From an uncultured Solirubrobacterales bacterium (GTDB lineage Bacteria > Actinomycetota > Thermoleophilia > Solirubrobacterales > 70-9): a stretch of DNA of 64,000 nt. Of the stretch, positions 20,635-49,108 are shown piece by piece. The stretch covers positions 159,491 to 223,490 of the forward strand of contig CAVOGY010000002.1 of NCBI GenBank assembly GCA_963695675.1. The letters run 5' to 3'. The position numbers were made by a program, and so were the translations under genes. The notes beneath the pieces are model-generated. The model did not search any database, had not been told where the DNA came from, and saw only the letters and a program-made list of their open reading frames with translations. Each line of letters opens with the position of its first letter. Position 1 is the first letter of the stretch.

Positions 20635-20898
20635 CTACTTCTGCGCGAAGTGCTGGGCGTTGATCTCGGTGAACTTCTCTTGCCCGTCCGGGACCTGGTC
20701 CTCCGGGAAGATTGCGTCCACGGGACAAACCTCGACGCAGGCGTCGCAGTCGATGCACTCGGCCGGGTCGATGTACAGCTGCCGGTGATCCTCGAAGTCC
20801 GGCTCCTCCTCAGTCGGGTGGATGCAATCCACCGGACAGACCTCGACGCAGGTGAGGTCCTTCAGGTCGATACAGGGCTCGGTGATGACGTATGTCAC
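20635..20898 (-). CDS. fdxA: ferredoxin with two Cys-cluster motifs (7Fe FdxA-like)
   Basis: (V)[27 protein letters not shown]...[19 protein letters not shown] start with GAGGAG 8 nt upstream. Confidence 0.9.
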
Positions 20899-20996
20899 CT
20901 CGGCTACTCCTCTTCGCGAACTGAGCGCGCCAATCGGCGCGGGGGACTTGCGGGTGCCGCACGAATGATAGGTGCGGCGGGGGTTCGAGCGGGTCG

Positions 20997-22136
20997 CTAT
21001 CCGGCGACTGCCACGGCCTGGCTCTCGACCGCGGCCGCGAGGGCGTCGAAGACCAGATCGGCGGTCTGGGTGCTGGCATTGGGCCCCATCAGGCCGACCC
21101 GCCAGATCGCCGGCGCGTCCGGGCCGAGGCCGCCGCCGACCTCGATGCCATTGGCGAGGAGCTGGCGTTGCACGGCCTTGCCGTCGATTCCGTCGGGGAC
21201 GCGGACCGCCGTCAAGGGAGCGAGCTGGTGTGCGGGCTCCGCCAGGAGCTCGAACCCCGCGTGGCACGCCAGCTGCTGGAAGTAGGTTCCCGCCTCGGTG
21301 TGCCTGGCCCAGCGGCGCTCGAGACCCTCGTCGAGGGTCTGCCGGAGGACTTCGTGGAGCGCGTAGATGTGGAGGATCGGTGCGGTGTGATGGTAGGTCG
21401 CCGGGCGTTCCACCCAATAGGCATGCAGGAGCAGCAGGTCCATCGAGAACGGAACCGGCAGCCGCCTGGCGCGGATCCGCTCCAGCGCTCGATCCGAGAC
21501 TGCTATCGGGGACATGCCGGGCGGAGCGGCCAGGCACTTCTGGGTGCACGAGTAGGCGTAGTCGAGCCCCCAGCCGTCGAAGTCCAGCTCGACCCCGCCC
21601 AGGGTGGTGACGCAGTCCGCCATCAGCAGAGTGTCGCGTCCGCGCATCGCGGCGCCGAGCCCCTCAAGCGGATGCTCGCAGCCGGTCGAGGTTTCCCCAT
21701 GGATGACGGCGAGCAGGCGCGCCTCGGGGTGATCGTCCAGGGCGGCGAGCAGCCGCTCGTTGGGGACGTGCTCACCCCAGTCCGCAGTGACCTCGATCAC
21801 CTCGGCGCCGGAGCGCCGGGCTATCTCCGCCATCCGCGCACCGAAGTAGCCGCTGGCGCCGACGATCACCGTCTCGCCCGGCTCGACCAGGTTGGCCAGG
21901 CCGGCCTCCATCCCCGACGTCCCGGTCGCCTGCAGGGGCAGGACCAACCCGCCCTCGGCGCGGAAGACCCTGCGAAGCCCCTCGACCACGTCGAGCAGGA
22001 TCTCGTGCATCTCCGGATCGAGGTGCCCGAGCATCGGCTTGCCCATCGCTTCGAGCGCGGCGGGATCGACGTTGGTCGGCCCGGGACCGCACAACAGCCT
22101 CTCTGATGGGGAGATCGGGGGCAGCTCGTAGCTCAC
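20997..22136 (-). CDS. class-V aminotransferase (alanine/serine--glyoxylate aminotransferase type)
   Basis: The AGXT-family layout includes the PLP-lysine context YSCTQKCL. The start was taken at GTG 22136 (VSYELPP...); the track start is TTG 22172. Confidence 0.8.
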
Positions 22137-22193
22137 CCCGGCAACCTTCTCATGAGGCGTACACCAGTTCAAACTAAGAAAAAACTGGAATAG

Positions 22194-22209
22194 ATAGGTA
22201 AATGCCTAT
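22194..22209. promoter_or_regulatory. ATAGG-N6-CCTAT palindrome in the aminotransferase/LysR divergent intergenic region (candidate LysR box)
   Basis: ATAGGTAAATGCCTAT is a perfect 5-bp inverted repeat in an AT-rich 85-nt gap. A second inverted repeat, CCAGTT-N13-AACTGG, lies at 22164-22188. Confidence 0.4.
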
Positions 22210-22221
22210 AGGTTTCCGGAC

Positions 22222-23175
22222 GTGGCCGTCACGGTGACCCAGCTCTCGGCCTTTCTCGCGGTCGTTCGCCACGGCTCGGTGACGGGGGCGGCGGAGGAGC
22301 TCGTGGTGACCCAGCCGTCGGTCTCGGCCGCCGTCGCGGCGCTCGAGCGCGAGCTGGGGGTGGATCTGACAGAGCGGGCCGGCCGCAGCATCAGGCCGAC
22401 TCCCGCGGGCGAGGCTTACGCGCGGTACGCCGCCGACGTCCTCGCCCTGCTCAAGGAGGGCTCTGAGGTGGTGGGCGAGGTCGCCAAGGGCACTGGTGCC
22501 CCGCTGCGAGTCACCGCGGTGACCACCGCGGGCGAATACCTGCTACCGCCGCTCCTGCATGCATTCCGGGAGCGCGAGCCAGAGCTCGAGGTGAGCGTCC
22601 ACGTCGGCAACCGCGAGGAGGTCTTCCGGCGTCTCGAGGCCCATGAAGCCGACGTGGCAATCTCCGGGCAGGCTCCCGGCGAGCGTGGCTTCGACGGGGC
22701 GGCTTTCCTCGACAACGAGTTCGTTCTGATCACCTCCCCCGACGACCCGCTGGCGAAGCGAGCCTGGGTCGCTGTGGACGAGCTGGCGGGCACTCCGTGG
22801 CTGATGCGCGAGCAGGGCTCAGGGACGCGCCGGTTGTGCGAGACCTACCTCAACTCCCACCAGCTCCAGCCGTCGATGCTGACGCTGGGGTCGAACGGCG
22901 CCATCAAGAACGCCGCCCGCATGGGGCTCGGCGTCGCCCTGCAGTCCCGCGAGGCCGTCGCGCTGGAGCTGGAGCTCGGCTTGCTGAAGACCATCCGCCC
23001 ACGCGGTGGGCTGCCGAAGCGCTCCTGGTACGTGGTCCGCTCAACCATCGGCCCCGGCTCGGAGCTCGCCGCGGCCTTCATGGAGTTCGTTCGGTCACCC
23101 GCCGCCGGCCAGGCGCTCGCGCGCTCACACGGCGATGAGGTCAAGCGAACGCGCGGTCGCCTGGCGGGCAGGTGA
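22222..23175 (+). CDS. LysR-family transcriptional regulator
   Basis: N-terminal wHTH reads LSAFLAVVRHGSVTGAAEELVVTQPSVSAAVAALERELG. Length of 317 aa. Confidence 0.85.
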   Translation: MAVTVTQLSAFLAVVRHGSVTGAAEELVVTQPSVSAAVAALERELGVDLTERAGRSIRPTPAGEAYARYAADVLALLKEGSEVVGEVAKGTGAPLRVTAVTTAGEYLLPPLLHAFREREPELEVSVHVGNREEVFRRLEAHEADVAISGQAPGERGFDGAAFLDNEFVLITSPDDPLAKRAWVAVDELAGTPWLMREQGSGTRRLCETYLNSHQLQPSMLTLGSNGAIKNAARMGLGVALQSREAVALELELGLLKTIRPRGGLPKRSWYVVRSTIGPGSELAAAFMEFVRSPAAGQALARSHGDEVKRTRGRLAGR

Positions 23176-23177: not shown

Positions 23178-24137
23178 TCAGGCGTGGAGCGCGGAATCCG
23201 CGCCGGTCACGTTCGGCGGATGCCGGTCGTGCGGATCGATGCCGGCACCGATCTCGGCTCGAGTCGCGACCATGTGGTAGAGCAGCAGGGTCTGGGCGAG
23301 GGCGAGCGACTCCGAGCGGTGCAGGTCGGTCCCGATCGTGAACTCCCCGAGCCGGTGGGCGCGGAGGTGGCTCGCGTGCTGCATCCGCGTCCAGACGGCG
23401 TCCTCGAGCTCGGCGGCGAGCTTGGGGTCCGTGTCGCCCGGGATCCTGAGGAGCGACTCGTGTTCGCGGCGGACCAGGGTCGGGCCGTCCCCGTCGGGTA
23501 GGAGAAAGGGGGAGAGGTCGGGATGCCTGAGCGTGTCCCGCAGGATCAGGTCCGCATCGAGCTGCTCCGGGTCGCTGCTCCTGGTCGGGGCGAACGAGAC
23601 GATGATGTCGGCGAGTCGCCGCTGGGGGCGGATGTACTGCTCGACATCCCCCTCCCGGCGATCGAGCTCGGCGATCACCTCGTGGGTGGTGTAGCCCCGA
23701 CGCGTGCAGTCGCGGGTCAGCTTCCAGGTCCGGCGCAGCTCCTCGGGCGGGGCCAGGAAGACCCTGATGTCATGGTCGGCGCAGAGCTCCTCCGAGTGGA
23801 AGTTGAGCAGTCCCTCGACCACGACGAAGGGGTTGGGGCGGACGTACTCCGGTGGGCCGAGGGTCCCGCTGCGATGGTCGTAGGTGGGCTTCAGCACCGG
23901 CTCTCGGTTGCGGAGGTGCGCGAGGTGCTGACCGAGGATCTCGAGATGGTTTGCGGCCGGATTCAGAGGGGTGATGCCGAGCTCGGCTCGCTGCTGGCGC
24001 CCGTACCGGTGATAGTCGTCGCCGCTGATGTACGAAACGCGCTCACGCCCGCCGAGGACGCGGACCACGCCTCGGGTAAACGTCGTCTTCCCGGCGGCGG
24101 AATCTCCGACGACTCCGAGGACGACCGGACGAGTCAT
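23178..24137 (-). CDS. prk: phosphoribulokinase (PRK/uridine-kinase family)
   Basis: P-loop GDSAAGKTT. PRK-like blocks are ISGDDYHRY, LKPTYDHRSGTLGPPEYV, VVVEGLL and YIRPQRRLADII. The start was set at MTRPVVLG to avoid overlapping the next gene. Confidence 0.8.
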   Translation of the reverse strand: MTRPVVLGVVGDSAAGKTTFTRGVVRVLGGRERVSYISGDDYHRYGRQQRAELGITPLNPAANHLEILGQHLAHLRNREPVLKPTYDHRSGTLGPPEYVRPNPFVVVEGLLNFHSEELCADHDIRVFLAPPEELRRTWKLTRDCTRRGYTTHEVIAELDRREGDVEQYIRPQRRLADIIVSFAPTRSSDPEQLDADLILRDTLRHPDLSPFLLPDGDGPTLVRREHESLLRIPGDTDPKLAAELEDAVWTRMQHASHLRAHRLGEFTIGTDLHRSESLALAQTLLLYHMVATRAEIGAGIDPHDRHPPNVTGADSALHA

Positions 24138-24183: not shown

Positions 24184-25203
24184 TCAGGCGCTGGTTGCGC
24201 TCCGTGGCTCGACGACGGGCGCTCGTGAGCCGTTCTCACGCTCCTCGATCAGGTCGATCTTGGCCAACAGGTGCTCGGCCATTCGCAGCGACGCCTGGTC
24301 GATCAGGCGGCCATCGAGCGAGACTGCGCCACTACCCGCCCTGCCCGCCTCCTCCATCGCGGCCATGATCCGGCGGGTCCGCGAGACCAGGCGGTCTGAC
24401 GGGGAGAAGACCTGGTTGGCGAGCTCAACCTGGCTTGGATGGATGCACCACTTGCCCTCGAAGCCGAGGATGGATGCTCGGCGCGCGGCGACCAGATAGC
24501 CCTCGGCATCCCCGAAGTCCCCGAACGGGCCGTCGATCGGCCTCAGTCCGTGTGCGCGGCAGGTGACCGCGATTCGAGCCAGCGGGTAATGCCATTGATC
24601 GCCCCAATGGAGCTCTCTGCTCACCTCCCCATCCTCGTTCGGATCGGTGAGCACGGCGTAGCCGGCGTCCGAGCCACCGATCGAGGCCGTGTGGCTCTCG
24701 ATCGAGGCCGCGTAGTCCGCGACGCCGAAGATCAGCGCCTCTAGCCGCTCCGGGGAGCTGGCGGCGATCTCGTCGAGGTTGACCATTCCGGACGCGGTCT
24801 CGATCAGCGCCGAGATCCCGATTGGCTTCTCGATCCCGACGGCTTCCTCGATCTGGGTCAGGAGGGTCGCCACCAGATGGATGTCGCCCGCCGATCCGGC
24901 CTTCGGGATCAGGACCGTGTCGAGCCATTCTCCGCTCTGCTCGACGACGTCGACGATGTCGCGGTAGCAATAGTGGGTGTCGAGCCCGTTGATTCTCACC
25001 GTCACCGCGCAGCCGGTCCAGTCGAGTTCGTTGAGGGCCGCGATCACATTCCGCCTCGCCTCGGGCTTGTCGTCGGGGGCCACCGCGTCCTCGAGATCGA
25101 GCATGACCACGTCGGCGCCTAGTCCAGGCGCCTTCTCGAGCATTCGCATGTTGGTGCCGGGGACGCAGAGCTCGCTGCGATGCAACCGCACTGGAATCGT
25201 CAT
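24184..25203 (-). CDS. mcl: HpcH/HpaI-CitE family lyase, malyl-CoA lyase-like
   Basis: 339 aa. CitE/Mcl-type N-terminus (RSELCVPGTNMRMLEKAPGLGADVVMLDLEDAV) and the block GFEGKWCIHPSQV. Substrate specificity is inferred from family and context only. Confidence 0.7.
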   Translation of the reverse strand: MTIPVRLHRSELCVPGTNMRMLEKAPGLGADVVMLDLEDAVAPDDKPEARRNVIAALNELDWTGCAVTVRINGLDTHYCYRDIVDVVEQSGEWLDTVLIPKAGSAGDIHLVATLLTQIEEAVGIEKPIGISALIETASGMVNLDEIAASSPERLEALIFGVADYAASIESHTASIGGSDAGYAVLTDPNEDGEVSRELHWGDQWHYPLARIAVTCRAHGLRPIDGPFGDFGDAEGYLVAARRASILGFEGKWCIHPSQVELANQVFSPSDRLVSRTRRIMAAMEEAGRAGSGAVSLDGRLIDQASLRMAEHLLAKIDLIEERENGSRAPVVEPRSATSA

Positions 25204-25437: not shown

Positions 25438-26892
25438 ATGATGGCCGCCAAGAACGAGCCCGAGGTGCCCAGCGAGGTCGAGGCCGCACTCTCCTCGCCG
25501 AAGATCGAGCCCGCTCCGCAGACCCTCGAGGAGGCGCGCGCGGCTCCTGGACGCGCGGAGAAGATCGCCGAGATCGAGAAGCGGATCGAAAGCGAGGGGA
25601 TCGAGTACGTCTTCTTCCAGCAGATCTCGATCAGTGGCCACATCAACGGCAAGGGGGTGGTGGCGAGCTGGTTCCCGAAAGTGGCCGCGCGCGGCTACCA
25701 GCTTGTCTACGGGGCGACCGCCGACCTGTTCACTGACCGTGAGGGCAACTACATCGGCTTCGGGCCACAGGAGTCGGAACTCGCTGCGATGGCCGACCTC
25801 GACACCTTCGAGCGGCTGCCGTGGGACCCGCGTGTGGCGCGGGTCTACTGCGACTGCTACGACACCGAGACGGGCGAGTTGCTCGACGCGGACCCGCGCC
25901 AGAACCTGAAGCGGGTTGCCCACGACATCGAGGAGGAGCTCGGCTACGCCTTCCTCTGCGGGATCGAGCCGGAGATGATGTGGATGAAGATCCCGGAGCC
26001 GGGCGAAGAGCCCGAGGGCGTCACCAAGCCCTGGTGCTACCACATCAACCAGTTCGAGCAGCTGCAGCCCGTGATCCTCGACGTGATCGCCTACGGCAAG
26101 GCGATGGGCCTCGACATGAGCTACGGCGACCATGAGGACGCCCCCGGGCAGCTGGAGCTCAACTTCCGCTTCGACCGCGCCGTGCGGACCGCGGACAACA
26201 TCAGCACCTACCGCCAGATCTGCAGCGCGGTGGGGCGCAAGCACGGCCTCCACGCTTCATTCATGCCGAAGCCGTTCACGGGTGTGTCCGCGAACGGACA
26301 CCACCATCACTTCACGCTGCTCGATGAGAGTGGCAACAACGTCTTCCACGACCCGGACGGACCGGCGCAGCTGTCCGAGATCGGCCGGCGGTTCATGGGT
26401 GGGATCCTCGACCACTTCCGGGCCCTGGTCTGCATCGGCTCGCCTACCGTGAACTCCTACAAGCGGATGTGGGACTTCGGCTTCTGGGCGCCGGTCTACA
26501 AGAACTACGGCTGGCAGAACCGCACCTGCACGGTTCGTGTCGCCAGCGGAGGCCGCTTCGAATTCCGTGGGGTGGACTCCTCCTGCAACCCGTACCTGAC
26601 CCAGGCCGCGCTGTTGAGCGCAGGACTGGACGGGGTGCGCCGCGAGCTCGACCCAGGTCCGCCCCAGCAGCGGAACACCTACGACCTGCTTGCCGAGGGC
26701 GCCGAGTTCGAGCGCGTGCCCGATCATCTCGGCGAGGCGCTGGGTGCCCTCGAGGCCGACGAGGTCGTGCGCGGGGCGATGCCGGGCCGACTCTACGATG
26801 TGTTCATGCACTACAAGCGCGACGAGTGGGAGCGCTACATGGCTGCGGTGACCGACTGGGAGCGCCAGCAGTACCTGGACGTCATGCCATGA
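25438..26892 (+). CDS. divergent glutamine-synthetase-family protein (module 1)
   Basis: GS catalytic-domain blocks are HEDAPGQLELNF, FMPKPF, NSYKR and NRTCTVRV. The ATP/metal loop reads ANGHHHHFTLLD rather than GNGCHMHMSLWD as in the paralog at 41674. GGAAGGAG RBS; ATG at 25438 or 25441. Confidence 0.85.
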   Translation: MMAAKNEPEVPSEVEAALSSPKIEPAPQTLEEARAAPGRAEKIAEIEKRIESEGIEYVFFQQISISGHINGKGVVASWFPKVAARGYQLVYGATADLFTDREGNYIGFGPQESELAAMADLDTFERLPWDPRVARVYCDCYDTETGELLDADPRQNLKRVAHDIEEELGYAFLCGIEPEMMWMKIPEPGEEPEGVTKPWCYHINQFEQLQPVILDVIAYGKAMGLDMSYGDHEDAPGQLELNFRFDRAVRTADNISTYRQICSAVGRKHGLHASFMPKPFTGVSANGHHHHFTLLDESGNNVFHDPDGPAQLSEIGRRFMGGILDHFRALVCIGSPTVNSYKRMWDFGFWAPVYKNYGWQNRTCTVRVASGGRFEFRGVDSSCNPYLTQAALLSAGLDGVRRELDPGPPQQRNTYDLLAEGAEFERVPDHLGEALGALEADEVVRGAMPGRLYDVFMHYKRDEWERYMAAVTDWERQQYLDVMP

Positions 26893-26911: not shown

Positions 26912-27841
26912 GTGTGCGGCATAGCGGGGATCATTTACCGGAACGGCAACGGGCAGGAGAAGGTGGGGCGCGACATGACCCGGATGCTCCAGGCGATGAA
27001 GCACCGGGGCCCCGACTCCACCGGCTTTGCGCTGTACCGCGGGGGCGGCGACACCTACGTGATGCACGTGAAGCTGAGCGAGCCGACCGAGCACGACCCC
27101 GAGCTCGAGCGGCGCATGCAGCGGCAGCGGGGCGAGGTCGAGACGCGCATGCGCGCGGCGGGCGCCCGGATCGAGGAGATCAAGGAGGCGCCTCGCACGA
27201 TGACGATCATCTTCGGCTTCGAGGGCGATCTCAAGCTGATCGCCGACGCCACCGAGCGTGTCCGCCACACCGAGGTGCTGTCGCTGGGGCGCTCGCTGGA
27301 GATCGTCAAGGACCTCGGCGACGCCGAGACCGTATCCGGCGGATACCACCTCGGTGAGTACACGGGCACCCACGCGATCGGCCACGCGCGCATGGCGACC
27401 GAATCGGACGTCGACATCGCCAACGCACACCCGTACTGGGCCTACCCGTTCCCCGATGTCGCCGTGGTCCACAATGGCCAGCTGACCAACTTCCACGACT
27501 GGCGCCGGCGGTTGACGCGGGCCGGCCACCGCTTCCAGTCCGAGTGTGACTCGGAGATCATCGCCGTCTACCTCGCCGCGCAGATGAGCCAGGGCCGGAC
27601 GCTCGAGGAGGCGATGCACCAGAGTCTCGAGGACCTCGACGGGGTCTTCACCTACATCTGCGTCACCGAGGACTCGCTCGGGGTGGCCAAGGACGAGCTC
27701 GGCGCCAAGCCGCTGGTGCTCTACGAGGACGACGACCTGGTGGCCCTCGCTTCCGAGGAGATCGCGATCCGCCAGGTGCTCGACCGCGAGATCGAGACCC
27801 ACGACCCCTATGAGGGCGAGGTGCGCGTATGGACCAGGTGA
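26912..27841 (+). CDS. class-II (Ntn) glutamine amidotransferase, GlxB/MgsA-like (module 1)
   Basis: The mature N-terminus would be Cys (MCGIAGII). It has the HARMATES block and is a paralog of 43060-43968. Confidence 0.85.
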   Translation: MCGIAGIIYRNGNGQEKVGRDMTRMLQAMKHRGPDSTGFALYRGGGDTYVMHVKLSEPTEHDPELERRMQRQRGEVETRMRAAGARIEEIKEAPRTMTIIFGFEGDLKLIADATERVRHTEVLSLGRSLEIVKDLGDAETVSGGYHLGEYTGTHAIGHARMATESDVDIANAHPYWAYPFPDVAVVHNGQLTNFHDWRRRLTRAGHRFQSECDSEIIAVYLAAQMSQGRTLEEAMHQSLEDLDGVFTYICVTEDSLGVAKDELGAKPLVLYEDDDLVALASEEIAIRQVLDREIETHDPYEGEVRVWTR

Positions 27842-28614
27842 GCGAGCAGCCTCGCATGGATGAACGCGGCCTCGTCGAGCTCGACGACTCGATTCCGAAG
27901 GCGGCGAAGATCGATGGACAAAGCGCGGTGATCGAGGCACGCGAGATGACCACGCGCAAGATCAACGCGGAGCTGCGCTGGCTGATCTATGAGCAGGGCG
28001 TCGCCGAGGTGACCGTGCGCGATCCGAGCGCAAGGCACTCGCTCGGCGTCGCGATACTGGCCCGCTGCAGGATCCGGTTCGAGGGCAGCCTCGGCTACTT
28101 CGGCTGCGGGCTGATCGACGGTCCGGAAGTCGAGATCACCGGGCGGGTGGGCTGGTCGGTCGCCGAGAACATGATGTCCGGCGTGGTGGTGGTCGAGGAG
28201 AACGCCGGATCTCTGGCAGGCGCCGCGATTCGGGGGGGCGACCTCGTCATCAAGGGCGACGTCGGAGCCCGCACGGGAATCGACCAGAAGGGCGGCACGA
28301 TCATCGTGCTCGGAAACGCGGCCTCGATGACCGGCTTCATGATGCAGCGCGGACGCCAGATCATCCTCGGCGACGTCGGGCCCGGGCTCGGGGACTCCAT
28401 GTACGACGGCACGATCTACGTCGGGGGCAAGATCGCCTCGCTCGGAATCGACTGCGTCGAGGGAGAGTGGACCGATGCCGACACCGAGCTGGTCGAGCGC
28501 AAGTTCTCGATCTACGGGCTCGGAGCCCCGCCGAAGCTGCGCAAGCTCGTCTCCGGAAAGAAGCTCTACAACTATGACAACCTCGAACCCAGCGAGCGAA
28601 AGCTCGTTCTCTAG
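27829..28614 (+). CDS. GXGXG-motif (glutamate synthase alpha C-terminal domain-like) protein, MgsB-like (module 1)
   Basis: Beta-helix repeats read GYFGCG, NMMSGVVVVEENAG, GGDLVIKGDVGARTG and GGTIIVLGNA. It overlaps the previous gene by 13 nt. Confidence 0.85.
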   Translation: MDQVSEQPRMDERGLVELDDSIPKAAKIDGQSAVIEAREMTTRKINAELRWLIYEQGVAEVTVRDPSARHSLGVAILARCRIRFEGSLGYFGCGLIDGPEVEITGRVGWSVAENMMSGVVVVEENAGSLAGAAIRGGDLVIKGDVGARTGIDQKGGTIIVLGNAASMTGFMMQRGRQIILGDVGPGLGDSMYDGTIYVGGKIASLGIDCVEGEWTDADTELVERKFSIYGLGAPPKLRKLVSGKKLYNYDNLEPSERKLVL

Positions 28615-41489: not shown

Positions 41490-41518
41490 ATACTAGACAA
41501 ATTGGTCCAAACGTGCAA
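41490..41518 (-). promoter_or_regulatory. sigma-70-like promoter for soxD operon (-35 TTGCAC, 17-nt spacer, -10 TAGTAT) with the palindrome TTTGGACCAA inside the spacer
   Basis: Minus strand reads TTGCACgtttggaccaatttgtcTAGTAT, about 45 nt upstream of the soxD ATG. The core TGGTCCAAA recurs at 25304-25312. Confidence 0.5.
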
Positions 41519-41673
41519 AAGCAATCGGAGCTTGGGTTGACTGGCCCCCAGGCCGCTGGCCCGTGGGCAGAGCGGATCAACCGAGACTATGTTGTCGGTC
41601 CACATAGGGTGGCGGGCAATCCTGGCGGGGGCGACCATTGCCGGGACGCCTCCTATGTGAGATACATCCAGCT

Positions 41674-43044
41674 ATGAGTAAGAATGCTCGCCCGACAGCT
41701 GACGATGTCCGCAAGGCCGTCAAGGACGACGGCATCGAGTTCCTGTTCGCGAACTTCGTGGACATGCACGCGAGACCGAGCGCCAAGCTGGTCCCGGCCG
41801 AGGAGCTCGAGGCGCTGTTCACCGACGGCGCCGGCTTCGCGGGGTTCGCCGCCGGCGACATCGGCCAGGCGCCGAGCGACCCCGACATGATCGCGATGCC
41901 CGACGTCGGCTCCTTCACGAAGCTGCCCTGGAAGCCCAACGTCGGCTGGTTCGCCTCCGACGTGACCGTCGAGGGAGAGGAGTGGCCGTACGACCCGCGC
42001 ACGATCCTGCGTCACCAGATGAAGCGCTGCGAGGACGCCGGCTACCAGTTCTTGATCGGCTACGAGCACGAGTACTTCCTGCTGCGCAGGACCGAGGACG
42101 GCGGCATCGAGATCGCGGACGACCTCGACACCCTCGAGCTCCCCTGCTACGACATTCGTGCCCTGACCCGGAGCTTCGACTTCGTCTCAGACGTGATCAA
42201 GAACGTCAACTCGCTGGGGTGGGAGCTGTACGCGACCGACCATGAGGACGCCAACGGGCAGTTCGAGCAGAACTTCGGCCCCGCCGACCCATTGACGAGC
42301 GGCGATCGCGCGATCTTCTACCGATACATGGTGGAGGCGATGGCACAGGAGCGCGGGCTGATCGCCACCTTCATGCCGAAGCCCTTCGGCAACCTGACCG
42401 GCAACGGCTGCCACATGCACATGAGCCTCTGGGACGGGGATACCAACGTGTTCCTAGAGGACCGCGAGAAAGACGAGCGGGGGATGGGTTTGAGCGAGAC
42501 GGGCTACCAGTTCCTCGCCGGGCTCAAGAAGCACGCCAAGGCCTACATCGCGTTGACCGCACCAATCGTCAGCTCGTACAAGCGGCTTGTGATCGGAGCA
42601 CCCACCAGCGGCGCCACCTGGGCTCCCGCCTATGTCACCTATGGGTGGAACAACCGGACGATGATGCTTCGCATCCCCGCGGAGGGGCGGATCGAGGACA
42701 GGACGGTCGACGGCGCCTGCAACCCCTACCTGGCGGCCACCGCCGTGCTCGCCGCCGGCCTCGACGGGATCGAGAACGGCCTCGACCCGGGAGAGCCGAC
42801 CAACATCAACATGTATGAGACCAGCGAGGAGGACCGCAAGAAGCTGGGCATCGAGACGCTCCCGGCCAATCTGCTCGACGCCACGCGCGAGCTGGAGGGC
42901 GACGAGGTGCTTCGCAAGGCCTTCGGCTCGGTCGGAGACGAGGACTACATCGACTACTTCATCCGCTGCAAGCGTCGCGAGTGGCAGCAGGCTCACGAGC
43001 AGATCACCAAATGGGAGATCGACCGTTACCTGCAGCTCGCCTGA
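41674..43044 (+). CDS. gmaS: glutamine-synthetase-family protein, gamma-glutamylmethylamide-synthetase-like by context (module 2)
   Basis: 456 aa with GS blocks HEDANGQFEQNF, FMPKPF, GNGCHMHMSLWD, SSYKR and NRTMMLRIP. It lies beside the mgs-like and sox-like genes. The symbol is assigned from synteny, not proven. Confidence 0.75.
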   Translation: MSKNARPTADDVRKAVKDDGIEFLFANFVDMHARPSAKLVPAEELEALFTDGAGFAGFAAGDIGQAPSDPDMIAMPDVGSFTKLPWKPNVGWFASDVTVEGEEWPYDPRTILRHQMKRCEDAGYQFLIGYEHEYFLLRRTEDGGIEIADDLDTLELPCYDIRALTRSFDFVSDVIKNVNSLGWELYATDHEDANGQFEQNFGPADPLTSGDRAIFYRYMVEAMAQERGLIATFMPKPFGNLTGNGCHMHMSLWDGDTNVFLEDREKDERGMGLSETGYQFLAGLKKHAKAYIALTAPIVSSYKRLVIGAPTSGATWAPAYVTYGWNNRTMMLRIPAEGRIEDRTVDGACNPYLAATAVLAAGLDGIENGLDPGEPTNINMYETSEEDRKKLGIETLPANLLDATRELEGDEVLRKAFGSVGDEDYIDYFIRCKRREWQQAHEQITKWEIDRYLQLA

Positions 43045-43059: not shown

Positions 43060-43968
43060 ATGTGCGGCATCGCTGGGCTGTTCAGCAAGTCAAGCACCGT
43101 TGAGGAGACCCTCGGCACGCATTTGAGCGCGATGCTGGGCCAGCTCGCAGAGCGCGGGCCCGACAGCGCCGGGGTGGCGCTCTACCGTGATCCCGCCCCG
43201 GCCGGGTCGTGCAAGGTGTCGCTCTTCTCGCCCGAGGAGGACTATCCCTGGCATGAGCTCGGCAGGGAGCTGTCCGAGAGCTTCGGCGAAGTCGGCGACC
43301 CCGAGGTCCGCGCCACCCACGCACTGTTCGTGGTCGATGACGACGGCGAGCAGCTGCAGCGCTGGCTCGGCGCGCGCCACCCCGAGCTGCGGGTGATGAG
43401 CGTGGGCGAGCGCATCGAGATCTACAAGGAGGCCGGGGACCCGCGCGACTTCATCAAGCGCTTCGGTCTGGAGCAGGTCTCGGCCACCCACGCGCTCGGC
43501 CACACCCGGATGGCGACCGAGAGCCGCGTCACCACCGAGCACTCCCACCCGTTCTCGACGGGACTCGATCTCTGCCTGGTCCACAACGGCTCGCTCTCCA
43601 ACCACAACCGGCTGCGCGTCTTCCTGCGCGGCCAGGGAATCGAATTCCAGACCGACAATGACTCCGAGGTCGCGGCCGGCTTCCTCACCTGGCGGCTCTC
43701 GGAGGGCGACGATCTGGAGACCGCGCTGGAGCGGTGCCTGACCGATCTCGACGGCTTCTACACCTTCGCGGTCGGCACCGCTGACGGCTTCGCGGTGCTC
43801 CGCGACCCGATTGCATGCAAGCCGGCGGTGATGGCCGAGACCGACGACTGGGTGGCGATGGCCTCGGAGTACCGGGCGATCGCCACGCTGCCCGGCGCCG
43901 AGGACGCGCGCCAGTGGGAGCCCGAGCCCGCGCGTGTCTATTCCTGGCAGCGGGCGAAGGTGGCGTGA
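43060..43968 (+). CDS. mgsA: class-II (Ntn) glutamine amidotransferase, MgsA/GlxB-like (module 2)
   Basis: MCGIAGLF N-terminus and the HTRMATES block. 302 aa. Confidence 0.8.
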   Translation: MCGIAGLFSKSSTVEETLGTHLSAMLGQLAERGPDSAGVALYRDPAPAGSCKVSLFSPEEDYPWHELGRELSESFGEVGDPEVRATHALFVVDDDGEQLQRWLGARHPELRVMSVGERIEIYKEAGDPRDFIKRFGLEQVSATHALGHTRMATESRVTTEHSHPFSTGLDLCLVHNGSLSNHNRLRVFLRGQGIEFQTDNDSEVAAGFLTWRLSEGDDLETALERCLTDLDGFYTFAVGTADGFAVLRDPIACKPAVMAETDDWVAMASEYRAIATLPGAEDARQWEPEPARVYSWQRAKVA

Positions 43969-44666
43969 GCACCGCACCCGCCGCACTCGAGTCCGTCGAC
44001 CTCGCAAGCACCACGGTGAGGGAGCTGAACCAGCGGCTCCACGATGCGGGCGCCGCAGGCCGCAGCCACTGGCGGATCGAGAATCCCGAGGGCGCCCATG
44101 CGCTCGCCGCGGGGCTGGATGGCGAGCTCGAGGTCGAGATCGACGGGCACGTCGGCTACTACTGCGCCGGGATGAACAAGCTCGCGACGGTCAGGGTGGC
44201 GGGCAATTGCGGTGTTGGCGTGGCCGAGAACATGATGTCGGGACTGGTCGTCGTGGATGGCGACGCCAGTCAGTCCGCGGGGGCGACCGGGCGCGGCGGC
44301 TTGCTCGTGATCAAGGGGAGCGCCTCCGCCCGCTGCGGGATCTCGATGAAGGGGATCCAAATCGTCGTCCACGGCTCGATCGGGCACGTCGGCGCCTTCA
44401 TGGCGCAGAAGGGCGCGCTCGTCGTCTGCGGTGACGCGGGCGAGGGCCTCGGCGACTCGATCTATGAGGCCCACCTCTACGTGCGCGGCGAGGTTGGAGC
44501 ACTCGGCGCCGACTGCGTGGAGAAGGAGATGCGCGGCGAGCACCTCGCGGAGCTGACCCGCCTGCTCGAGCTGGGGGAGGCGGACGCGAAGCCCGCAGAG
44601 TTCCGGCGCTACGGCTCGGCGCGCCAGCTCTACAACTTTCAGGTCGACAGCGCGGGCGATTACTGA
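43965..44666 (+). CDS. mgsB: GXGXG-motif protein, MgsB/GlxC-like (module 2)
   Basis: The GTG overlaps the previous stop (GTGA). Repeats read GYYCAG, NMMSGLVVVDGDAS, GGLLVIKGSASARCG and GALVVCGDAG. Confidence 0.8.
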   Translation: MSTAPAALESVDLASTTVRELNQRLHDAGAAGRSHWRIENPEGAHALAAGLDGELEVEIDGHVGYYCAGMNKLATVRVAGNCGVGVAENMMSGLVVVDGDASQSAGATGRGGLLVIKGSASARCGISMKGIQIVVHGSIGHVGAFMAQKGALVVCGDAGEGLGDSIYEAHLYVRGEVGALGADCVEKEMRGEHLAELTRLLELGEADAKPAEFRRYGSARQLYNFQVDSAGDY

Positions 44667-46048
44667 TGGCCGAGTTCGATGCCCTGCGCAAGGAGGAGGA
44701 GTACGACCCGGAGCTGGTCGATCGCTGGCAGCCGGGCCTGCGCGAGTCGGCCCTGTTCGACCGCAACGCGATCCACGAGATCCACAGGATGGCGCGGGAG
44801 GGGATCTACGACATCCGCGGCTTCGGCGCCAAGCGCCGCGTGCCGCACTTCGACGACCTGCTCTTCCTCGGGGCCAGCGTCTCGCGCTACCCGCTGGAGG
44901 GCTACCGGGAGCGCTGCGCCACCGACGTCACGCTCGGGACCCGGTTCGCGAAGGAGCCCATTCACCTCGAGATCCCGATCACGATCGCAGGCATGAGCTT
45001 CGGCGCCCTCTCAGCGCCAGCCAAGGAGGCGCTCGGCCGCGGTGCCAGCGCGATGGGGACGAGCACGACCACCGGCGACGGCGGCATGCTCCCGGAGGAG
45101 CGCGAGCACTCGAGCCAGCTCGTCTACCAGATCCTCCCCTCGCGCTACGGGGTGAACCCGGACGACCTGCGCCGAGCCGACGCGGTCGAGGTCGTTGTCG
45201 GCCAGGGGGCGAAGCCGGGCGGCGGCGGCATCCTGATGGGTCAGAAGATCTCGGACCGGGTTGCCGAGATGCGCGACCTGCCGAAGGGGGTCGACCAGCG
45301 CAGCGCCTGCCGCCACCCGGATTGGACCGGTCCAGACGACCTCGAGATCAAGATCGGTGAGCTCCGTGAGATCACCGATTGGCGTAAGCCGATCTACGTC
45401 AAGATCGGCGCCACCCGCACCTACTTCGACGTCGCCCTCGCGGTCAAGGCCGGGGCCGACGTCATCGTGCTCGATGGCATGGAGGGCGGCACCGCTGCCA
45501 GCCAGGAGGTCTTCATCGAGCACGTCGGCATCCCGATCCTGGCAGCGATCCCGGAGGCGGTCCGCTCGCTGCAGGACCTCGGCATGCACCGGGAGGTGCA
45601 GCTGATCGTCTCGGGAGGAATTCGCTCGGGCGCGGACGTCGCCAAGGCATTGGCGCTGGGCGCGGACGCGGCCTCGATCGGGGTGGCGGCCGTGGTCGCG
45701 CTCGGCGACAACTCCCACCGCTTCGAGCGGGAGTACGAGAAGATCGGCACCGCGGCCGGCTTCTATGACGACTGGCACGAGGGCCGCGACCCCGTCGGGA
45801 TCTCGACCCAGGACGACGAGCTCGCCAGCCGCTTCGACCCCGAGCTCGGCGGCCGCCGGATAGCGAACTATCTGCGCGCGATGGTGCTCGAAGCGCAGAC
45901 GATCGCCCGCGCCTGCGGCAAGACCCACGTCCACAACCTCGAGCCCGAGGACATGGTCGCCCTGACCGTCGAGGCGGCGGCGATGGCCAAGATTCCCGTT
46001 GCCGGCACCGACTGGGTGCCCGGACAGTCAACTCAGGATGGAGGCTGA
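44666..46048 (+). CDS. mgsC: FMN-dependent glutamate-synthase-domain protein, MgsC/GlxD-like, lacking the Cys motif (module 2)
   Basis: Blocks are [23 protein letters not shown] and DGMEGGTAA. The position equivalent to the Cys motif reads [19 protein letters not shown]. Confidence 0.85.
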
Positions 46049-46053
46049 TCAAG

Positions 46054-47254
46054 ATGGCGAAGATCGTTTGTGTTCTCTACGACGACCCGGTGGACGGCTA
46101 TCCGCCCGCCTATCCGCGCGACGACATCCCCAAGATCGAGCGCTACCCCGACGGGCAGACGACCCCCACCCCGAGCGCGATCGACTTCTCGCCCGGCGAG
46201 CTGCTCGGCTGCGTCTCGGGCGAGCTTGGCCTGCGCAAGTTCCTCGAGGACGCCGGCCATGAGCTGGTGGTCACCGCCCACAAGGACGGCGAGGACTCCG
46301 AGTTCGACCAGAATCTCCCCGACGCCGAGGTGGTGATCTCACAGCCCTTCTGGCCGGCCTATCTGACCGCGGAGCGGATCGCAGAAGGCGCCGAACCTGA
46401 AGATGTCGATCACCGCGGGGATCGGCTCGGACCACGTCGACCTGCAGGCGGCGATCGACCACGGGATCACGGTTGCCGAGGTCACGTATTGCAACTCGAT
46501 CAGCGTCTCCGAGCACGTGGTGATGATGATCCTGGGGTTGGTCCGCAACTACATCCCCTCCTACAAGACGGTGGTGGACGGCGGCTGGAACATCGCGGAC
46601 TGCGTCTCACGTGAGTACGACGTCGAGGGGATGCAGGTCGGCACCGTCGGGGCCGGCCGCATCGGTTCGGCGGTGCTCCGCCGGATGAAGCCGTTCGAGG
46701 TCGGGCTTCACTACACCGACCGCCACCGGCTGCCGGACGAGGTCGAGGAGGAGCTCGGCGTCACCTACCACGAGACCCCCGAGGAGATGGTGGGGGAGTG
46801 CGACGTGGTCACGATCAACGCCCCGCTCCACCCCGAGACCGAGAATCTCTTCGACGACCGGATGCTCGCCCGGATGAAGCGGGGCGCCTATATCGTCAAT
46901 ACCGCGCGCGGCAAGATCTGCGACCGCGACGCGATCGCCCGAGCGCTCGAGTCGGGACAGCTCGCCGGGTATGCGGGCGACGTCTGGTTCCCTCAGCCGG
47001 CGCCCAAGGACCACCCCTGGCGGACGATGCCCTGGCACGGCATGACCCCGCACACGTCGGGCTCCAGCCTCTCGGCCCAGGCTCGCTACGCCGCCGGCAC
47101 GAGGGAGATCCTCGAGTGCCACTTCGAGGGCAAGCCGATTCGCGAGGAGTACCTGATCGTCGAGGGCGGCAAGCTCGCCGGAGCCGGCGCCCATGCCTAC
47201 AGCGAGGGCTCCGCCACGGCCGGCCACGAGGAGGCGGCGCGGTTCAAGCGTTGA
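46054..47254 (+). pseudogene. fdh: NAD-dependent formate dehydrogenase interrupted by a +1 frameshift near 46390-46396
   Basis: [45 protein letters not shown]...[21 protein letters not shown] is in frame 1. It continues as [47 protein letters not shown]...GDVWFPQPAPKDHPWRTMP in frame +1 (track ORF 46403-47254). Confidence 0.85.
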
Positions 47255-47327
47255 GTGGGTTCCATACGGCCCGGAGGCAGCATGAGTCAGGTCCCTGACG
47301 CCGGATTTCGGTAGTTGAATAGGCGAC

Positions 47328-47705
47328 ATGGATGCGGCGACGGTCAGGGCGATGCTCCAGCAGCAGTTCGAGCACGCCGGCAGCGATCCCGAGCTCTCCC
47401 ACGCGATGTACCGCGAGGACGCGGTGCTCGAGTTCCCGCAGTCGGGAGAGCGCTTCGAGGGAGTGGAGAACTTCCGCGAGTGGAGGAGCAACTATCCCGC
47501 CGAGACGGCCTTCGAATTGCGGGAGGTCAGGGGGCGGGACGATTTTTGGGTGGCTGAGCTCCTGGTGAGCTACGACGGGGGTGACCCGCACTTCGGGGTC
47601 AGCATCCTCGAGCTACGCGACGACAAGATCGCCCGCGAGTCGATCTACGTCGCCGAGGGCTGGGAGCCGCCGGAGTGGAGGGCTAGGTGGAGGGCGGCGC
47701 CCTGA
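47328..47705 (+). CDS. SnoaL/NTF2-like superfamily protein (different subfamily from the MSEEN genes)
   Basis: 125 aa: ...YREDAVLEFPQSGERFEGVENFREWRSNYP...IARESIYVAEGWEPPEWRARW. Confidence 0.65.
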   Translation: MDAATVRAMLQQQFEHAGSDPELSHAMYREDAVLEFPQSGERFEGVENFREWRSNYPAETAFELREVRGRDDFWVAELLVSYDGGDPHFGVSILELRDDKIARESIYVAEGWEPPEWRARWRAAP

Positions 47706-47725
47706 GCGCTGGCGGTTAGGCGCCG

Positions 47726-49108
47726 ATGCCGCCGGCGACTGAAAGCCCGCTCGACCGCGACCGGCTCGCCGTCCTCCTCGAGGAGGAGAAGCGGCGCTTC
47801 GTCGAGGGGCACCCCGGCTCGCGAGAGCTCTTCGAGCGCGGCCGGAGAGCGCTGCTCGCGGGCGTGCCGATGCCGTGGATGACGGAGTGGGCGAGTCCCT
47901 TTCCCGTGTTCGCCGCAAGCGCTGCGGGGGCCCGCTTCACCGACGTGGACGGCAACGACTACGTCGACCTCTGCCTCGGCGACACCGGGGCGATGACGGG
48001 CCACTCACCGCCGGCCACCGCAGCCGTGGTGGCGGAACGGGCGGCTCGCGGGATCACGCTGATGCTTCCGACCGAGGACGCAAGCTGGGTGGGGGAGGAA
48101 CTTGGGCGGCGCTTCGGCCTGCCGCGCTGGCAATTCGCCCTGACGGCGACCGACGCCAATCGCTTCGCTCTGCGCCTCGCGAGGGCAATCACCGACCGGC
48201 CGAGGGTCCTGGTCTATGCCCGGTGCTACCACGGCACCGTCGACGAGAGCTTCGCGATCGAGGTCGAGGGCGAGACTCGCTCACGGCCCGACAACATCGG
48301 TCCGCCCGTTGACCTGGCGTTGACGACGCGGGCAATCGAGTGGAACGACATTGCCGCCCTCGAGCGCGCCCTCGAGCCCGGCGACGTTGCCTGCGTGTTG
48401 GCGGAGCCCGCGATGACCAACGCCGGCATCGTGCTTCCCGATCCCGGTTACCACGAGGCGCTTCGCCAGCTCACGAGGGAGTACGGAACCCTGCTGGTGA
48501 TCGACGAGACGCACACCTTCTGCGCCGGGCCTGGTGGCTACACGGCGGCCGCGGGGCTGGAACCCGACCTGCTCACGATCGGCAAGGCGATCGCCGCCGG
48601 CATTCCCGCCGCCGCCTATGGGATGACCGAGGAGGTGGCCGAGCGGGTCAGCGCCCACCACAGGATGCTGGAGACGTCCGATGTCGGCGGCATCGGCGGC
48701 ACGCTGGCGGGTAACGCGCTGTCGCTGGCTGCAACGCGTGCGACCCTCCAGGAGGTGCTCACCGACGCGGCGTTCAGCCACATGATCGAGATGGCGAAGC
48801 GCTTCGAAGCCGGCGTGAACGACGTGATCGCCGCGCACGGCATGCCCTGGAATTCCGTCCGGCTTGGCTGCCGAGTCGAGTACCACTTCCAGCCGACGCC
48901 GCCGCGCAACGGATCCGAGGCGGTGGCGGCCGACGACGCGATGCTGGGGCGCTACATGCATCTGCATGCGCTCAACCGCGGCATCCTGCTGACTCCGTTC
49001 CACAACATGGCTCTGATGTGCCCGGCGACGAGCAGCGACGACGTCGACCGGCACACGGCGGCGTTCCACGAGGCGGTGGAAGCGCTGGCCGACTCGCGAT
49101 CTAGCTGA
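47726..49108 (+). CDS. class-III (GSA-aminomutase-like) PLP-dependent aminotransferase
   Basis: LVIDETHTF and the PLP-lysine context LLTIGKAIAAGIP. 460 aa. Confidence 0.8.
   Translation: MPPATESPLDRDRLAVLLEEEKRRFVEGHPGSRELFERGRRALLAGVPMPWMTEWASPFPVFAASAAGARFTDVDGNDYVDLCLGDTGAMTGHSPPATAAVVAERAARGITLMLPTEDASWVGEELGRRFGLPRWQFALTATDANRFALRLARAITDRPRVLVYARCYHGTVDESFAIEVEGETRSRPDNIGPPVDLALTTRAIEWNDIAALERALEPGDVACVLAEPAMTNAGIVLPDPGYHEALRQLTREYGTLLVIDETHTFCAGPGGYTAAAGLEPDLLTIGKAIAAGIPAAAYGMTEEVAERVSAHHRMLETSDVGGIGGTLAGNALSLAATRATLQEVLTDAAFSHMIEMAKRFEAGVNDVIAAHGMPWNSVRLGCRVEYHFQPTPPRNGSEAVAADDAMLGRYMHLHALNRGILLTPFHNMALMCPATSSDDVDRHTAAFHEAVEALADSRSS

Follow-up and report, generated by a model that had tools for sequence, protein, structure and literature searches.

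The DNA analysed here is a 64-kb window (the whole stretch of 64,000 nucleotides, positions 159,491 to 223,490 of contig CAVOGY010000002.1, assembly GCA_963695675.1) from an uncultured Solirubrobacterales bacterium, which carries, between about 14.1 and 49.1 kb, two gene modules resembling the front end of the N-methylglutamate (NMG) pathway and, between them, an operon for a four-subunit sarcosine oxidase-like (Sox-like) enzyme and tetrahydrofolate (THF)-linked one-carbon (C1) enzymes (Table 1). The window has a GC content of about 68% and its gene set was obtained by GC3-based calling, raw lists of open reading frames being useless. Family scans with NCBIfam and Pfam covered 58 of the 61 called genes, to which all family-scan negatives given below refer, and bit scores were judged against the curated cutoffs of the NCBIfam/TIGRFAM models. 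Every gene that an earlier sequence-only reading of this DNA had listed from 20635 to 49108 was recovered, in the order and on the strands that it had stated, and its placement of the DNA in the Actinomycetota was borne out, as the NCBI-named homologs of the module 1 flavoprotein DAO1 are from Solirubrobacterales. Relatives were collected by scanning one genome per GTDB species for DAO1, which yielded 257 matching genomes; the best 80 loci (designated by L-numbers), all from Solirubrobacterales/Thermoleophilia metagenome-assembled genomes (MAGs), were compared by tblastn of all window proteins, and synteny counts were taken from the 57 loci in which DAO1 has 8 kb or more of sequence on either side.

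Table 1. Features of the region, in window coordinates, with the evidence for each assignment.
Feature	Position	Strand	Evidence or remark
PucR-family regulator with GAF domains	14146..16044	-	Pfam GAF_2, HTH_30, GGDEF_2; divergent from Amt
Amt-family (methyl)ammonium transporter	16177..17622	+	PF00909 192 bits; TIGR00836 204 bits, below cutoff 343
Conserved 166-aa protein	18183..18683	+	Weak PepSY match, PF03413 22.6 bits, below cutoff
Class-I glutamine amidotransferase (GATase)-like protein, possible gamma-glutamyl-amide hydrolase	18693..19406	+	PF00117 73 bits; NF005458 181 bits, below cutoff 250
R2-like ligand-binding oxidase (R2lox)-like di-iron protein	19624..20598	+	NF006200 155 bits, below cutoff 194; start uncertain
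FdxA-type ferredoxin	20635..20898	-	NF045480 FdxA_Actino 92 bits; GTG start before TYVITEPC
Class-V aminotransferase, alanine/serine-glyoxylate type (AGT/Sga-like)	20997..22172	-	PF00266
LysR regulator, best match CbbR	22222..23175	+	NF045990 190 bits, below cutoff
Phosphoribulokinase (PRK)	23178..24137	-	NF005655 300 bits, above cutoff 236; ATG at 24137 removes overlap with Mcl
L-malyl-CoA/beta-methylmalyl-CoA lyase (Mcl), HpcH/CitE family	24184..25203	-	Structure-sequence matches
GS1, putative divergent GmaS-like gamma-glutamyl-amine ligase (module 1)	25438..26892	+	TIGR03105 346.2 bits, below cutoff 469.6
Class-II (Ntn) amidotransferase, MgsA-like (module 1)	26912..27841	+	N-terminal (M)CGIAG; GATase class II matches; 35% to module 2 MgsA
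GXGXG subunit, MgsB-like (module 1)	27829..28614	+	PF01493 51 bits; 36% to module 2 MgsB
FMN1, FMN subunit, MgsC/GltB-like (module 1)	28625..30085	+	Retains glutamate-synthase [3Fe-4S] cysteine ligands
unk147, lineage-specific 147-aa acidic protein	30082..30525	+	No cysteines; 3' end of module 1 operon
DAO1, DAO-family FAD oxidoreductase	30531..31820	+	PF01266 130 bits; highly conserved
DAO2, DAO1 paralog	31915..33186	+	41% identical to DAO1; start uncertain, CTG after Shine-Dalgarno GAAGGAG
GntR/UTRA (HutC-type) regulator	33214..34008	-	PF00392, PF07702; NCBIfam matches; last gene of sox operon
FTCD_C-family cyclodeaminase/cyclohydrolase, Fch-like	34021..34647	-	PF04961 51 bits, above cutoff 24.5
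Formate-tetrahydrofolate ligase (Fhs/FtfL)	34657..36333	-	NF010030 771 bits, above cutoff 652
SoxB/MgdA-type beta subunit	36356..37573	-	TIGR01373 454 bits, below cutoff 529
SoxG/MgdD-type gamma subunit	37566..38312	-	PF01571 49 bits; weak similarity to Acinetobacter MgdD
SoxA/MgdC-type alpha subunit with GCV_T (THF-binding) domain	38309..41197	-	TIGR01372 737 bits, below cutoff 1164
SoxD/MgdB-type delta subunit	41194..41445	-	TIGR01374 78.5 bits, below cutoff 116.5
Divergent soxD/gmaS2 promoter region	41446..41673	.	Two conserved non-coding blocks; comparison of related loci
GS2, predicted gamma-glutamylmethylamide synthetase GmaS (module 2)	41674..43044	+	TIGR03105 578.8 bits, above cutoff 469.6
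MgsA, class-II amidotransferase subunit (module 2)	43060..43968	+	54-55% to Methylobacterium, Acinetobacter MgsA
MgsB, GXGXG subunit (module 2)	43965..44666	+	61-64% to reference MgsB
MgsC, FMN subunit, no Fe-S ligands (module 2)	44666..46048	+	75-77% to reference MgsC; Asp, Trp, Asp at cluster positions
NAD-dependent formate dehydrogenase (FDH)	46054..47254	+	NF005750 positions 1-111 (180 bits) and 117-384 (493 bits) in different frames; 1-base insertion near 46383
SnoaL_2 protein	47328..47705	+	PF12680 32 bits, above cutoff 27
Class-III (GSA-aminomutase-like) transaminase	47726..49108	+	NF005453 661 bits, above cutoff 425; last gene of module 2 operon

The region is the core of an order-wide conserved, vertically inherited catabolic supercluster. 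Syntenic orthologous clusters with protein identities of 70-98% occur in the best 80 of the 257 matching genomes, in which DAO1 itself is at least 71% identical. The module 1 genes from the ligase to unk147 lie beside DAO1 in 49-50 of the 57 loci, fhs and soxB are near it in 32 and DAO2 in 23, the block of Mcl, AGT, PRK and LysR is near it in 10-11, and a partial GS2 gene is found beyond soxD in 11. The conserved unit starts at 14146, further upstream than the 20635 from which the gene list had been drawn, because PucR (on the minus strand), Amt, the 166-aa protein and the class-I GATase lie directly upstream of GS1 in many genomes. PucR directly precedes the run from Amt to GS1 in 13 of the 57 loci, orthologs of the 166-aa protein (41-51% identity) stand between Amt and the GATase in 16, and the GATase directly precedes GS1 in many relatives; in the window, a block of R2lox-like, ferredoxin, AGT, LysR, PRK and Mcl genes is inserted between the GATase and GS1. 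Amt is thus a conserved neighbour of module 1, and a transporter of this family is also held by the canonical Acinetobacter NMG cluster.

Module 2 (41674-46048) is, as judged from its predicted proteins, a canonical GmaS and MgsABC front end, as had already been proposed. The gmaS-mgsABC-mgdABCD pathway of Proteobacteria (Methyloversatilis universalis FAM5, Methylocella silvestris and Methylobacterium extorquens PA1) served as the comparison system, and the clusters compared directly were the annotated ones of A. caldus and of Acinetobacter and Methylobacterium plasmids. In addition to its score above the curated GmaS cutoff, GS2 matches the solved GmaS structures 9qur and 7cql with 402 and 399 bits. 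It has been shown that true glutamine synthetases (GS) carry an Asp in the Asp50' loop and a Glu in the flap, whereas GmaS has Ala48' (in RhGmaS) and Trp300 and uses Asp177, Glu186 and Arg312, with Tyr147, Gln175, Glu179, Asn188 and Lys30' among the criteria for its methylamine pocket (PMC7948447). GS2 has Ala at 48' (GAGFAGFAAG) and Trp at 300 (GATWAPAY), the ammonium machinery of GS being lost, and it keeps Asp177, Glu179, Glu186, Asn188, Tyr147, Lys30' and Arg312, with Ala in place of Gln175. Identities of the module 2 MgsABC proteins range from 54 to 77% against Methylobacterium and from 44 to 77% against two Actinomycetota plasmids, one of Mycobacterium and one of Streptomyces. Like the proteobacterial clusters, module 2 combines the same four front-end genes (43-77% identity) with the GmaS diagnostic residues, an adjacent four-subunit Sox-like dehydrogenase with a THF-binding alpha subunit and clustered genes for THF-linked C1 oxidation, and it shares with the Acinetobacter cluster a nearby Amt transporter. 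Unlike them, the window has its dehydrogenase genes in the order delta-alpha-gamma-beta, fhs and an Fch-like gene in place of purU/folD, NAD-FDH, SnoaL and class-III transaminase genes in the gmaS operon, a second, divergent module and a host from the Thermoleophilia.

The four Sox-like subunits are encoded beside gmaS and mgsABC, with soxD divergent from gmaS2 across 228 bp, and in two relatives (L035 and L036) the sox genes are divergent from GS1 itself. SoxB, SoxA and SoxD score below the curated cutoffs for sarcosine oxidase and SoxG gave no TIGR01375 match at E<=1e-5; SoxA reaches 592 bits against Acinetobacter MgdC versus 494 against Azospirillum SoxA, and in PLSDB the top four matches to SoxB all have a linked gmaS, as judged by coordinates for three Paraburkholderia records and by annotation for A. 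caldus. Pairwise identity was inconclusive as a discriminator between Mgd and Sox (46% versus 47% for SoxB) and trees were used instead. Neighbour-joining (NJ) trees were built for the beta and for the alpha subunit, with a small reference set of three gmaS-linked Mgd, two orphans and five true Sox; among the last are the enzymes of Corynebacterium and Stenotrophomonas with crystal structures and operons linked to glyA. The window subunits group with the gmaS-linked Mgd and fall outside the true Sox clade, the true-Sox bipartition having bootstraps of 100/100 and 60/60 and the rooted window-plus-Mgd group one of 97/100. As in the SoxBDAG enzymes of Corynebacterium sp. U-96 (1VRQ/3AD7) and Stenotrophomonas (2GAG), all four subunits are present, the beta subunit being 44% identical, the alpha subunit has a GCV_T domain, and the window beta subunit keeps a His at the place of the 'KHD' His in 1VRQ, the Corynebacterium SoxB, a residue that we take to be the site of covalent FMN attachment. 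Unlike those enzymes, the window subunits are below the cutoffs, belong to a separate clade, have a permuted gene order and lack an adjacent glyA or sdaA. Context and phylogeny, rather than activity, thus point to soxDAGB as a putative Mgd-type N-methylglutamate dehydrogenase, in line with its previous reading as MgdABCD, and a dual specificity for N-methylglutamate and sarcosine is possible. The accompanying THF-linked genes, formerly read as Fhs, Fch and FDH, proved real by profile scores as Fhs, an FTCD_C protein of Fch type and an NAD-FDH.

Two non-coding blocks of the soxD/gmaS2 promoter region, CATACTAGACAAATTGGTCCAA and an inverted repeat CTATGT-N9-ACATAG (41489-41511 and 41588-41608), are kept in L005, L007, L008 and L014 while their surroundings diverge; as candidate operators, they might be targets of the GntR/UTRA regulator that ends the sox operon. 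The 9-mer TGGTCCAAA, present in both divergent promoters of the window, was rejected as a common operator: its copy upstream of GS1 is conserved in 0 of 53 relatives, and only the copy at soxD/gmaS2 is conserved.

The reading that we favour overall, at a probability of roughly 0.6, is that the supercluster serves the use of methylamine and perhaps of related small N-methyl or alkyl amines. In this scheme GS2 would ligate methylamine to glutamate and MgsABC would then make N-methylglutamate, which the Mgd-type dehydrogenase may oxidise to glutamate and methylene-THF; the C1 unit could subsequently be oxidised to formate and then CO2 by the route of Fch-type cyclohydrolase, Fhs and NAD-FDH, with the methylene-THF dehydrogenase step supplied from elsewhere in the genome. 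The glyoxylate aminotransferase, Mcl, PRK and the CbbR-like LysR regulator would link C1 and glycine/glyoxylate carbon to central metabolism.

With regard to this last group of genes, the enzyme called 'CitE' in the sequence-only reading is, as supposed there, a true malyl-CoA lyase, with 398 bits over the full length to Methylobacterium extorquens Mcl (5UGR), 318 to that of R. sphaeroides (4L9Y) and about 65-69 to M. tuberculosis CitE, and the class-V enzyme is of the AGT/Sga type, its best PDB matches being alanine-glyoxylate aminotransferase 1vjo (327 bits) and human AGT (256-265 bits). AGT, LysR, PRK and Mcl move as one block in several arrangements beside sox, fhs and DAO1, LysR being always found with the other three, and this recurrence argues for a functional link. 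The window resembles the serine and Calvin-Benson-Bassham (CBB) cycles in having the Mcl ortholog, the glyoxylate aminotransferase, a PRK above its cutoff and the CbbR-like LysR. It differs from them in that the family scans found no domain of serine hydroxymethyltransferase (glyA), hprA, gck, mtkAB, ppc or methylene-THF dehydrogenase, and in that the four genes form a travelling block of their own. RuBisCO large-subunit motifs were absent from the window and from 95 other fetched loci, including 80 Solirubrobacterales loci, where the motif scan extended 10 kb around DAO1. The absences listed before, of the remainder of the serine cycle and of mtdA or folD, accordingly hold for the window; that of folD is not remarkable, because soxB is directly followed by purU and folD in L058, a Thermoleophilaceae locus, and the genome should have a housekeeping folD at another place.

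Several points weigh against the methylamine reading. Neither a methylene-THF dehydrogenase nor RuBisCO is present in the window according to family and motif scans, pairwise identity fails to separate Mgd from Sox, SoxD is 45% identical to Azospirillum SoxD versus 36% to Acinetobacter MgdB, and the gene order is D-A-G-B (delta-alpha-gamma-beta) instead of the canonical mgdA-B-C-D (B-D-A-G). In L058 and L034, sox is accompanied by EtfAB, a DgcB-like Fe-S protein and a fragment resembling trimethylamine dehydrogenase (TMADH)/DgcA, with no GmaS within 10 kb, a layout that resembles those typical of dimethylglycine/sarcosine catabolism. The linkage of AGT and Mcl suits a glycine-producing pathway better than a glutamate-producing one. 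Furthermore, the substrate and electron partner proposed for module 1 are wholly conjectural, and for the Solirubrobacterales as a whole neither an enzyme activity nor a growth phenotype is on record.

Part of this evidence is what an alternative would lead one to see, namely that soxDAGB is a true heterotetrameric sarcosine oxidase and that the main task of the cluster is the breakdown of sarcosine, dimethylglycine or betaine-type osmolytes, with GmaS/Mgs as a co-located amine-scavenging system; we consider this unlikely. Such a route would explain the persistent linkage of AGT and Mcl to sox and fhs, since it gives glycine, which AGT would turn into glyoxylate for condensation with acetyl-CoA to malyl-CoA by Mcl, and it is favoured by the closer similarity of SoxD to that of Azospirillum and by the company that sox keeps in L058 and L034, with Etf, a 706-aa Fe-S oxidoreductase and the TMADH/DgcA-like fragment nearby. 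In L058 that fragment, EtfB, EtfA and the 706-aa membrane Fe-S oxidoreductase lie upstream of the cluster (1-4147), and the order, as in L034, continues with LysR, AGT and Mcl-fhs-IclR-DAO1-soxD-soxA-soxG-soxB-purU-folD, the last two genes (16269-17985), both above curated cutoffs, being directly downstream of soxB. The alternative is opposed by the grouping of the beta and alpha subunits with gmaS-linked Mgd, apart from crystallised and glyA-linked Sox, by the sub-cutoff scores and by the position of the operon between two GmaS/Mgs modules, with a promoter region common to gmaS2 or, in L035/L036, divergent from GS1. In addition, neither glyA nor sdaA is adjacent to it, unlike the reference Sox operons, which carry glyA. 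Linkage to betaine or dimethylglycine catabolic genes gives a mixed picture, being absent from the window and present in part in L058 (Etf, DgcB-like, purU and folD). A true sarcosine oxidase, which the sequence-only reading had itself named as fatal to its proposal, is made less plausible but keeps some probability, as the sox genes of L058 do sit with Etf/DgcB-like genes and without GmaS.

Returning to the methylamine reading, module 1 is where the locus departs from known systems. It had been described as a duplicated front end, a description that does not hold: the two modules are only 33-53% identical and module 1 is an ancient paralog, with Fe-S ligands in FMN1, extra subunits and a ligase below the GmaS cutoff. 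The ligase and synthase genes were correctly named, and three further genes had been left unnamed, those of unk147 (30082-30525) and of two DAO flavoproteins (30531-31820 and ~31915-33186). GS1 has Trp (FGFWAPVY) at the position of the flap Glu and keeps the equivalents of Asp177, Glu179, Glu186, Asn188, Tyr147, Lys30' and Arg312, with Tyr for Gln175, so that six of the seven methylamine-pocket residues of GmaS are retained; its Asp50' loop has an insertion of about 9 aa and an ambiguous alignment (Tyr or Asp). GS1 is about equally distant from GS and GmaS structures, and its residues indicate that it is a GmaS-like amine ligase and not a glutamine synthetase.

The synthase of module 1 consists, beside the gmaS-type gene and as in module 2, of an Ntn amidotransferase with Cys1 in an (M)CGIAG N-terminus, a GXGXG subunit and an FMN subunit, the three being 35-54% identical to Methylobacterium MgsABC. 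The canonical MgsC proteins examined, from module 2, Methylobacterium and Mycobacterium, all carry Asp, Trp and Asp where GltB has its cluster cysteines. In FMN1, by contrast, the three [3Fe-4S] cysteines of GltB (7mfm, 1ea0 and 2vdc) have exact counterparts in the alignment, Cys342, Cys366 and Cys371, and an 18-residue insertion between these ligands holds a further cysteine, Cys363; 62-63 orthologs conserve all four. Because of these cysteines module 1 is not filed as a canonical MgsABC, the FMN subunit without Fe-S ligands being found in module 2 only. No cultured host of the Fe-S variant was found among 72,556 plasmids, where all matches are of the canonical type and below 60% identity. 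A third paralogous Mgs-like module lies beside DAO2 in L021 (~18798-20075) and L027 (~19447-20724, minus strand); it includes GXGXG, GATase, class-I GATase and SnoaL genes, the SnoaL homolog being seen in L021, and its FMN subunit is 56% identical to FMN1 and carries the same four cysteines, which suggests that the Fe-S-bearing family has several lineages.

The 3' end of the module 1 operon is occupied by unk147, which has no Pfam or NCBIfam match. Its 7838 close homologs are all named 'hypothetical', an exhaustive profile search found only 227 representatives among 1.84 billion, and the protein stays with the genes from GS1 to FMN1 where DAO1 is divergent. An AlphaFold2 model from a 23-sequence alignment had a pLDDT of 35, that is, low confidence. 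Apparent FMN1-unk147 fusions (e.g. P0242, 617 aa) were rejected as frameshift artefacts with out-of-frame filler between the two parts. DAO1 is remote from SoxB and MgdA (22-27% identity), fills the slot before soxD in L028, L034 and L058, has a best PDB match that spans the FAD domain only and gave an AlphaFold2 model (pLDDT 51) that is confident in that domain alone. For DAO2, the stretch 31821-31917 offers no ATG, GTG or TTG start before the Rossmann motif, the table entry being based on a CTG at 31915 after a GAAGGAG Shine-Dalgarno sequence; relatives have a GTG start overlapping the DAO1 stop codon, or an ATG start.

Canonical N-methylglutamate synthase is redox-neutral, and an Fe-S cluster retained in FMN1 would imply electron exchange with a partner, the candidates being DAO1, DAO2, the FdxA-type ferredoxin and unk147. 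Module 1 might accordingly act as a redox-coupled variant of glutamate synthase (GOGAT), converting gamma-glutamyl-(methyl)amide, 2-oxoglutarate and two electrons to N-alkylglutamate and glutamate, with a DAO flavoprotein and/or ferredoxin as its electron partner or as N-alkylglutamate oxidase and with the upstream Amt feeding it; the net outcome would be assimilation of amine nitrogen into glutamate. That module 1 represents an 'alkylamine-GOGAT', an undescribed intermediate of glutamate synthase and N-methylglutamate synthase and a core trait of Solirubrobacterales with at least two paralogous lineages, is a tentative proposal to which we give distinctly less than even odds. Precedent for a DAO-type third step is provided by Actinomycetota plasmids (Ca. 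Mycobacterium methanotrophicum and Streptomyces sp. NBC_01320) in which gmaS-mgsABC is followed by a single FAD oxidoreductase and, in the Streptomyces strain, then by S-(hydroxymethyl)mycothiol dehydrogenase, the mycothiol-dependent formaldehyde dehydrogenase. As in these plasmids, the front end of module 1 leads directly to a DAO-family flavoprotein and not to mgdABCD. Unlike module 1, the plasmid front ends are canonical and resemble module 2 closely, come with a flavoprotein of no more than 25-30% identity to DAO1/DAO2, and lack both unk147 and the Fe-S ligands. Puu-type gamma-glutamylation uses the PuuA ligase, the DAO-family oxidase PuuB and the amidotransferase-like hydrolase PuuD, and the upstream part of the locus together with module 1 likewise joins a GS-like ligase, DAO oxidoreductases and a class-I amidotransferase-like protein; it differs in having a GATase assigned to PF00117 and not to Peptidase_C26, no aldehyde dehydrogenase and a GOGAT-like synthase between ligase and oxidase.

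Glutamate synthases, both the NADPH- or ferredoxin-dependent GltB type (1EA0, 2VDC, 7MFM and 1LLW) and the split archaeal type, are the other comparison for module 1, which shares with GltB the Ntn-amidotransferase, FMN/synthase and GXGXG domains, here as separate genes, and all three [3Fe-4S] ligands. This likeness opens the alternative that module 1 carries out plain ammonium assimilation, with import by Amt, a GS-like ligase and a split Fe-S glutamate synthase of archaeal or ferredoxin-dependent type and without any involvement of methylated amines, which we regard as improbable. Amt and the PucR/GAF regulator immediately upstream in many genomes would fit it, as would the three cluster cysteines, the single best PDB match of GS1, to an archaeal glutamine synthetase (259.6 bits versus 254 for GmaS), and a nearby ferredoxin gene, which in L068 is directly upstream of GS1. 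On the other hand, GS1 has Trp where all true GS carry the catalytic flap Glu, and it has the GmaS-specific equivalent of Asp177 where true GS has His (PMC7948447). The family scans likewise revealed no GltD-type partner (no Fer4_20/Pyr_redox_2 GltD-like gene), and module 1 is tied to DAO-type oxidoreductases and sox/fhs C1 genes in most genomes. It further departs from GOGAT by the insertion with a fourth Cys, the GmaS-like ligase and the attached DAO flavoproteins and orphan protein.

That the region arrived by horizontal transfer, as an island introducing methylotrophy genes to an otherwise unrelated actinobacterial genome, as the word 'island' had suggested and as the dense clustering of C1 genes and the occurrence of NMG genes on plasmids of Mycobacterium, Streptomyces, Methylobacterium and Acinetobacter might recommend, is contradicted here and hardly credible, since the comparison of region and flanks that had been called for was negative for transfer in GC, GC3, codon usage and tRNA alike (GC 0.687 versus 0.675, or 0.66-0.71 across the region versus 0.62-0.70 in the flanks; relative synonymous codon usage (RSCU) r=0.993, with 0.989 for the left versus right flank control; no tRNA gene in a scan of the window), the family scans gave neither an integrase nor a transposase, none of the 72,556 plasmids has a close homolog of module 1, and the orthologs are syntenic across the order.

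NMG genes in Mycobacterium, of the Actinobacteria, were noted genomically in 2015 (PMC5023230), and no specific report of the NMG pathway or of gmaS in Thermoleophilia/Solirubrobacterales was found in the literature. Module 2 represents the known pathway in an unstudied and abundant soil lineage. What is new is module 1 as an apparent variant with an Fe-S-retaining synthase, an orphan subunit and dedicated DAO flavoproteins, its substrate and redox coupling being inferred only, and its MgsC-like subunit would offer an evolutionary link, accessible to direct testing, from glutamate synthase to N-methylglutamate synthase. The Solirubrobacterales have barely been brought into culture, for all their abundance and activity in soils, and a single MAG of this order has been reported to account for 3-9% of community gene expression (PMC12872456). 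If the order-wide cluster does serve methylamine use, these bacteria are candidate soil sinks for methylated amines, with relevance to nitrogen and C1 cycling. Automated annotation labels these sox genes 'sarcosine oxidase' or 'FAD-dependent oxidoreductase', and JGI names for DAO1 are inconsistent, sometimes 'methylglutamate dehydrogenase subunit A', so that soil metatranscriptome readings of betaine/sarcosine turnover may be confounded.

Regarding the remaining genes, the NAD-FDH previously read in module 2 is present, and its reading frame is broken by one extra base near 46383, in ...ATCGCAGAAGGCG... (46375-46390). Intact FDH products of 399-410 aa occur on sibling metagenome contigs, although a 99.7%-identical sibling contig stops just before the frameshift site, and an identical Fhs is found on four ENA metagenome contigs that have fragmented gene calls and 8 to 210 gap openings per alignment with the window. 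As the assemblies are indel-prone and sibling contigs have an intact FDH, the frameshift is probably an assembly error rather than the mark of a pseudogene. In the closest genome (L014) the other cluster proteins are about 85-98% identical to those of the window and DAO2 is 90% identical, with DAO1 (10001-11284) at only 77%, for which allele replacement or sequence errors are possible explanations. Copies of the R2lox-like gene, 82-88% identical, take varying positions in the supercluster (L012 11526-12497, L022 19754-20716, L033 6349-7302), namely between DAO1 and DAO2, after soxD or between module 1 genes. Two small open reading frames (~116 and ~50 aa) with hydrophobic stretches, possibly encoding membrane proteins, lie at 17675-18180 between Amt and the 166-aa PepSY-like protein. 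No Rfam match was obtained anywhere in the window at gathering thresholds. Outside the supercluster, the left end of the window (1442-5525) encodes two unrelated RTX-type calcium-binding-repeat proteins, one with a trypsin-like protease domain, and on the right a glucose-6-phosphate dehydrogenase gene and a 6-phosphogluconate-dehydrogenase-like gene (56758-59286 and 59957-62254) are divergent, with two DUF899 paralogs near them.

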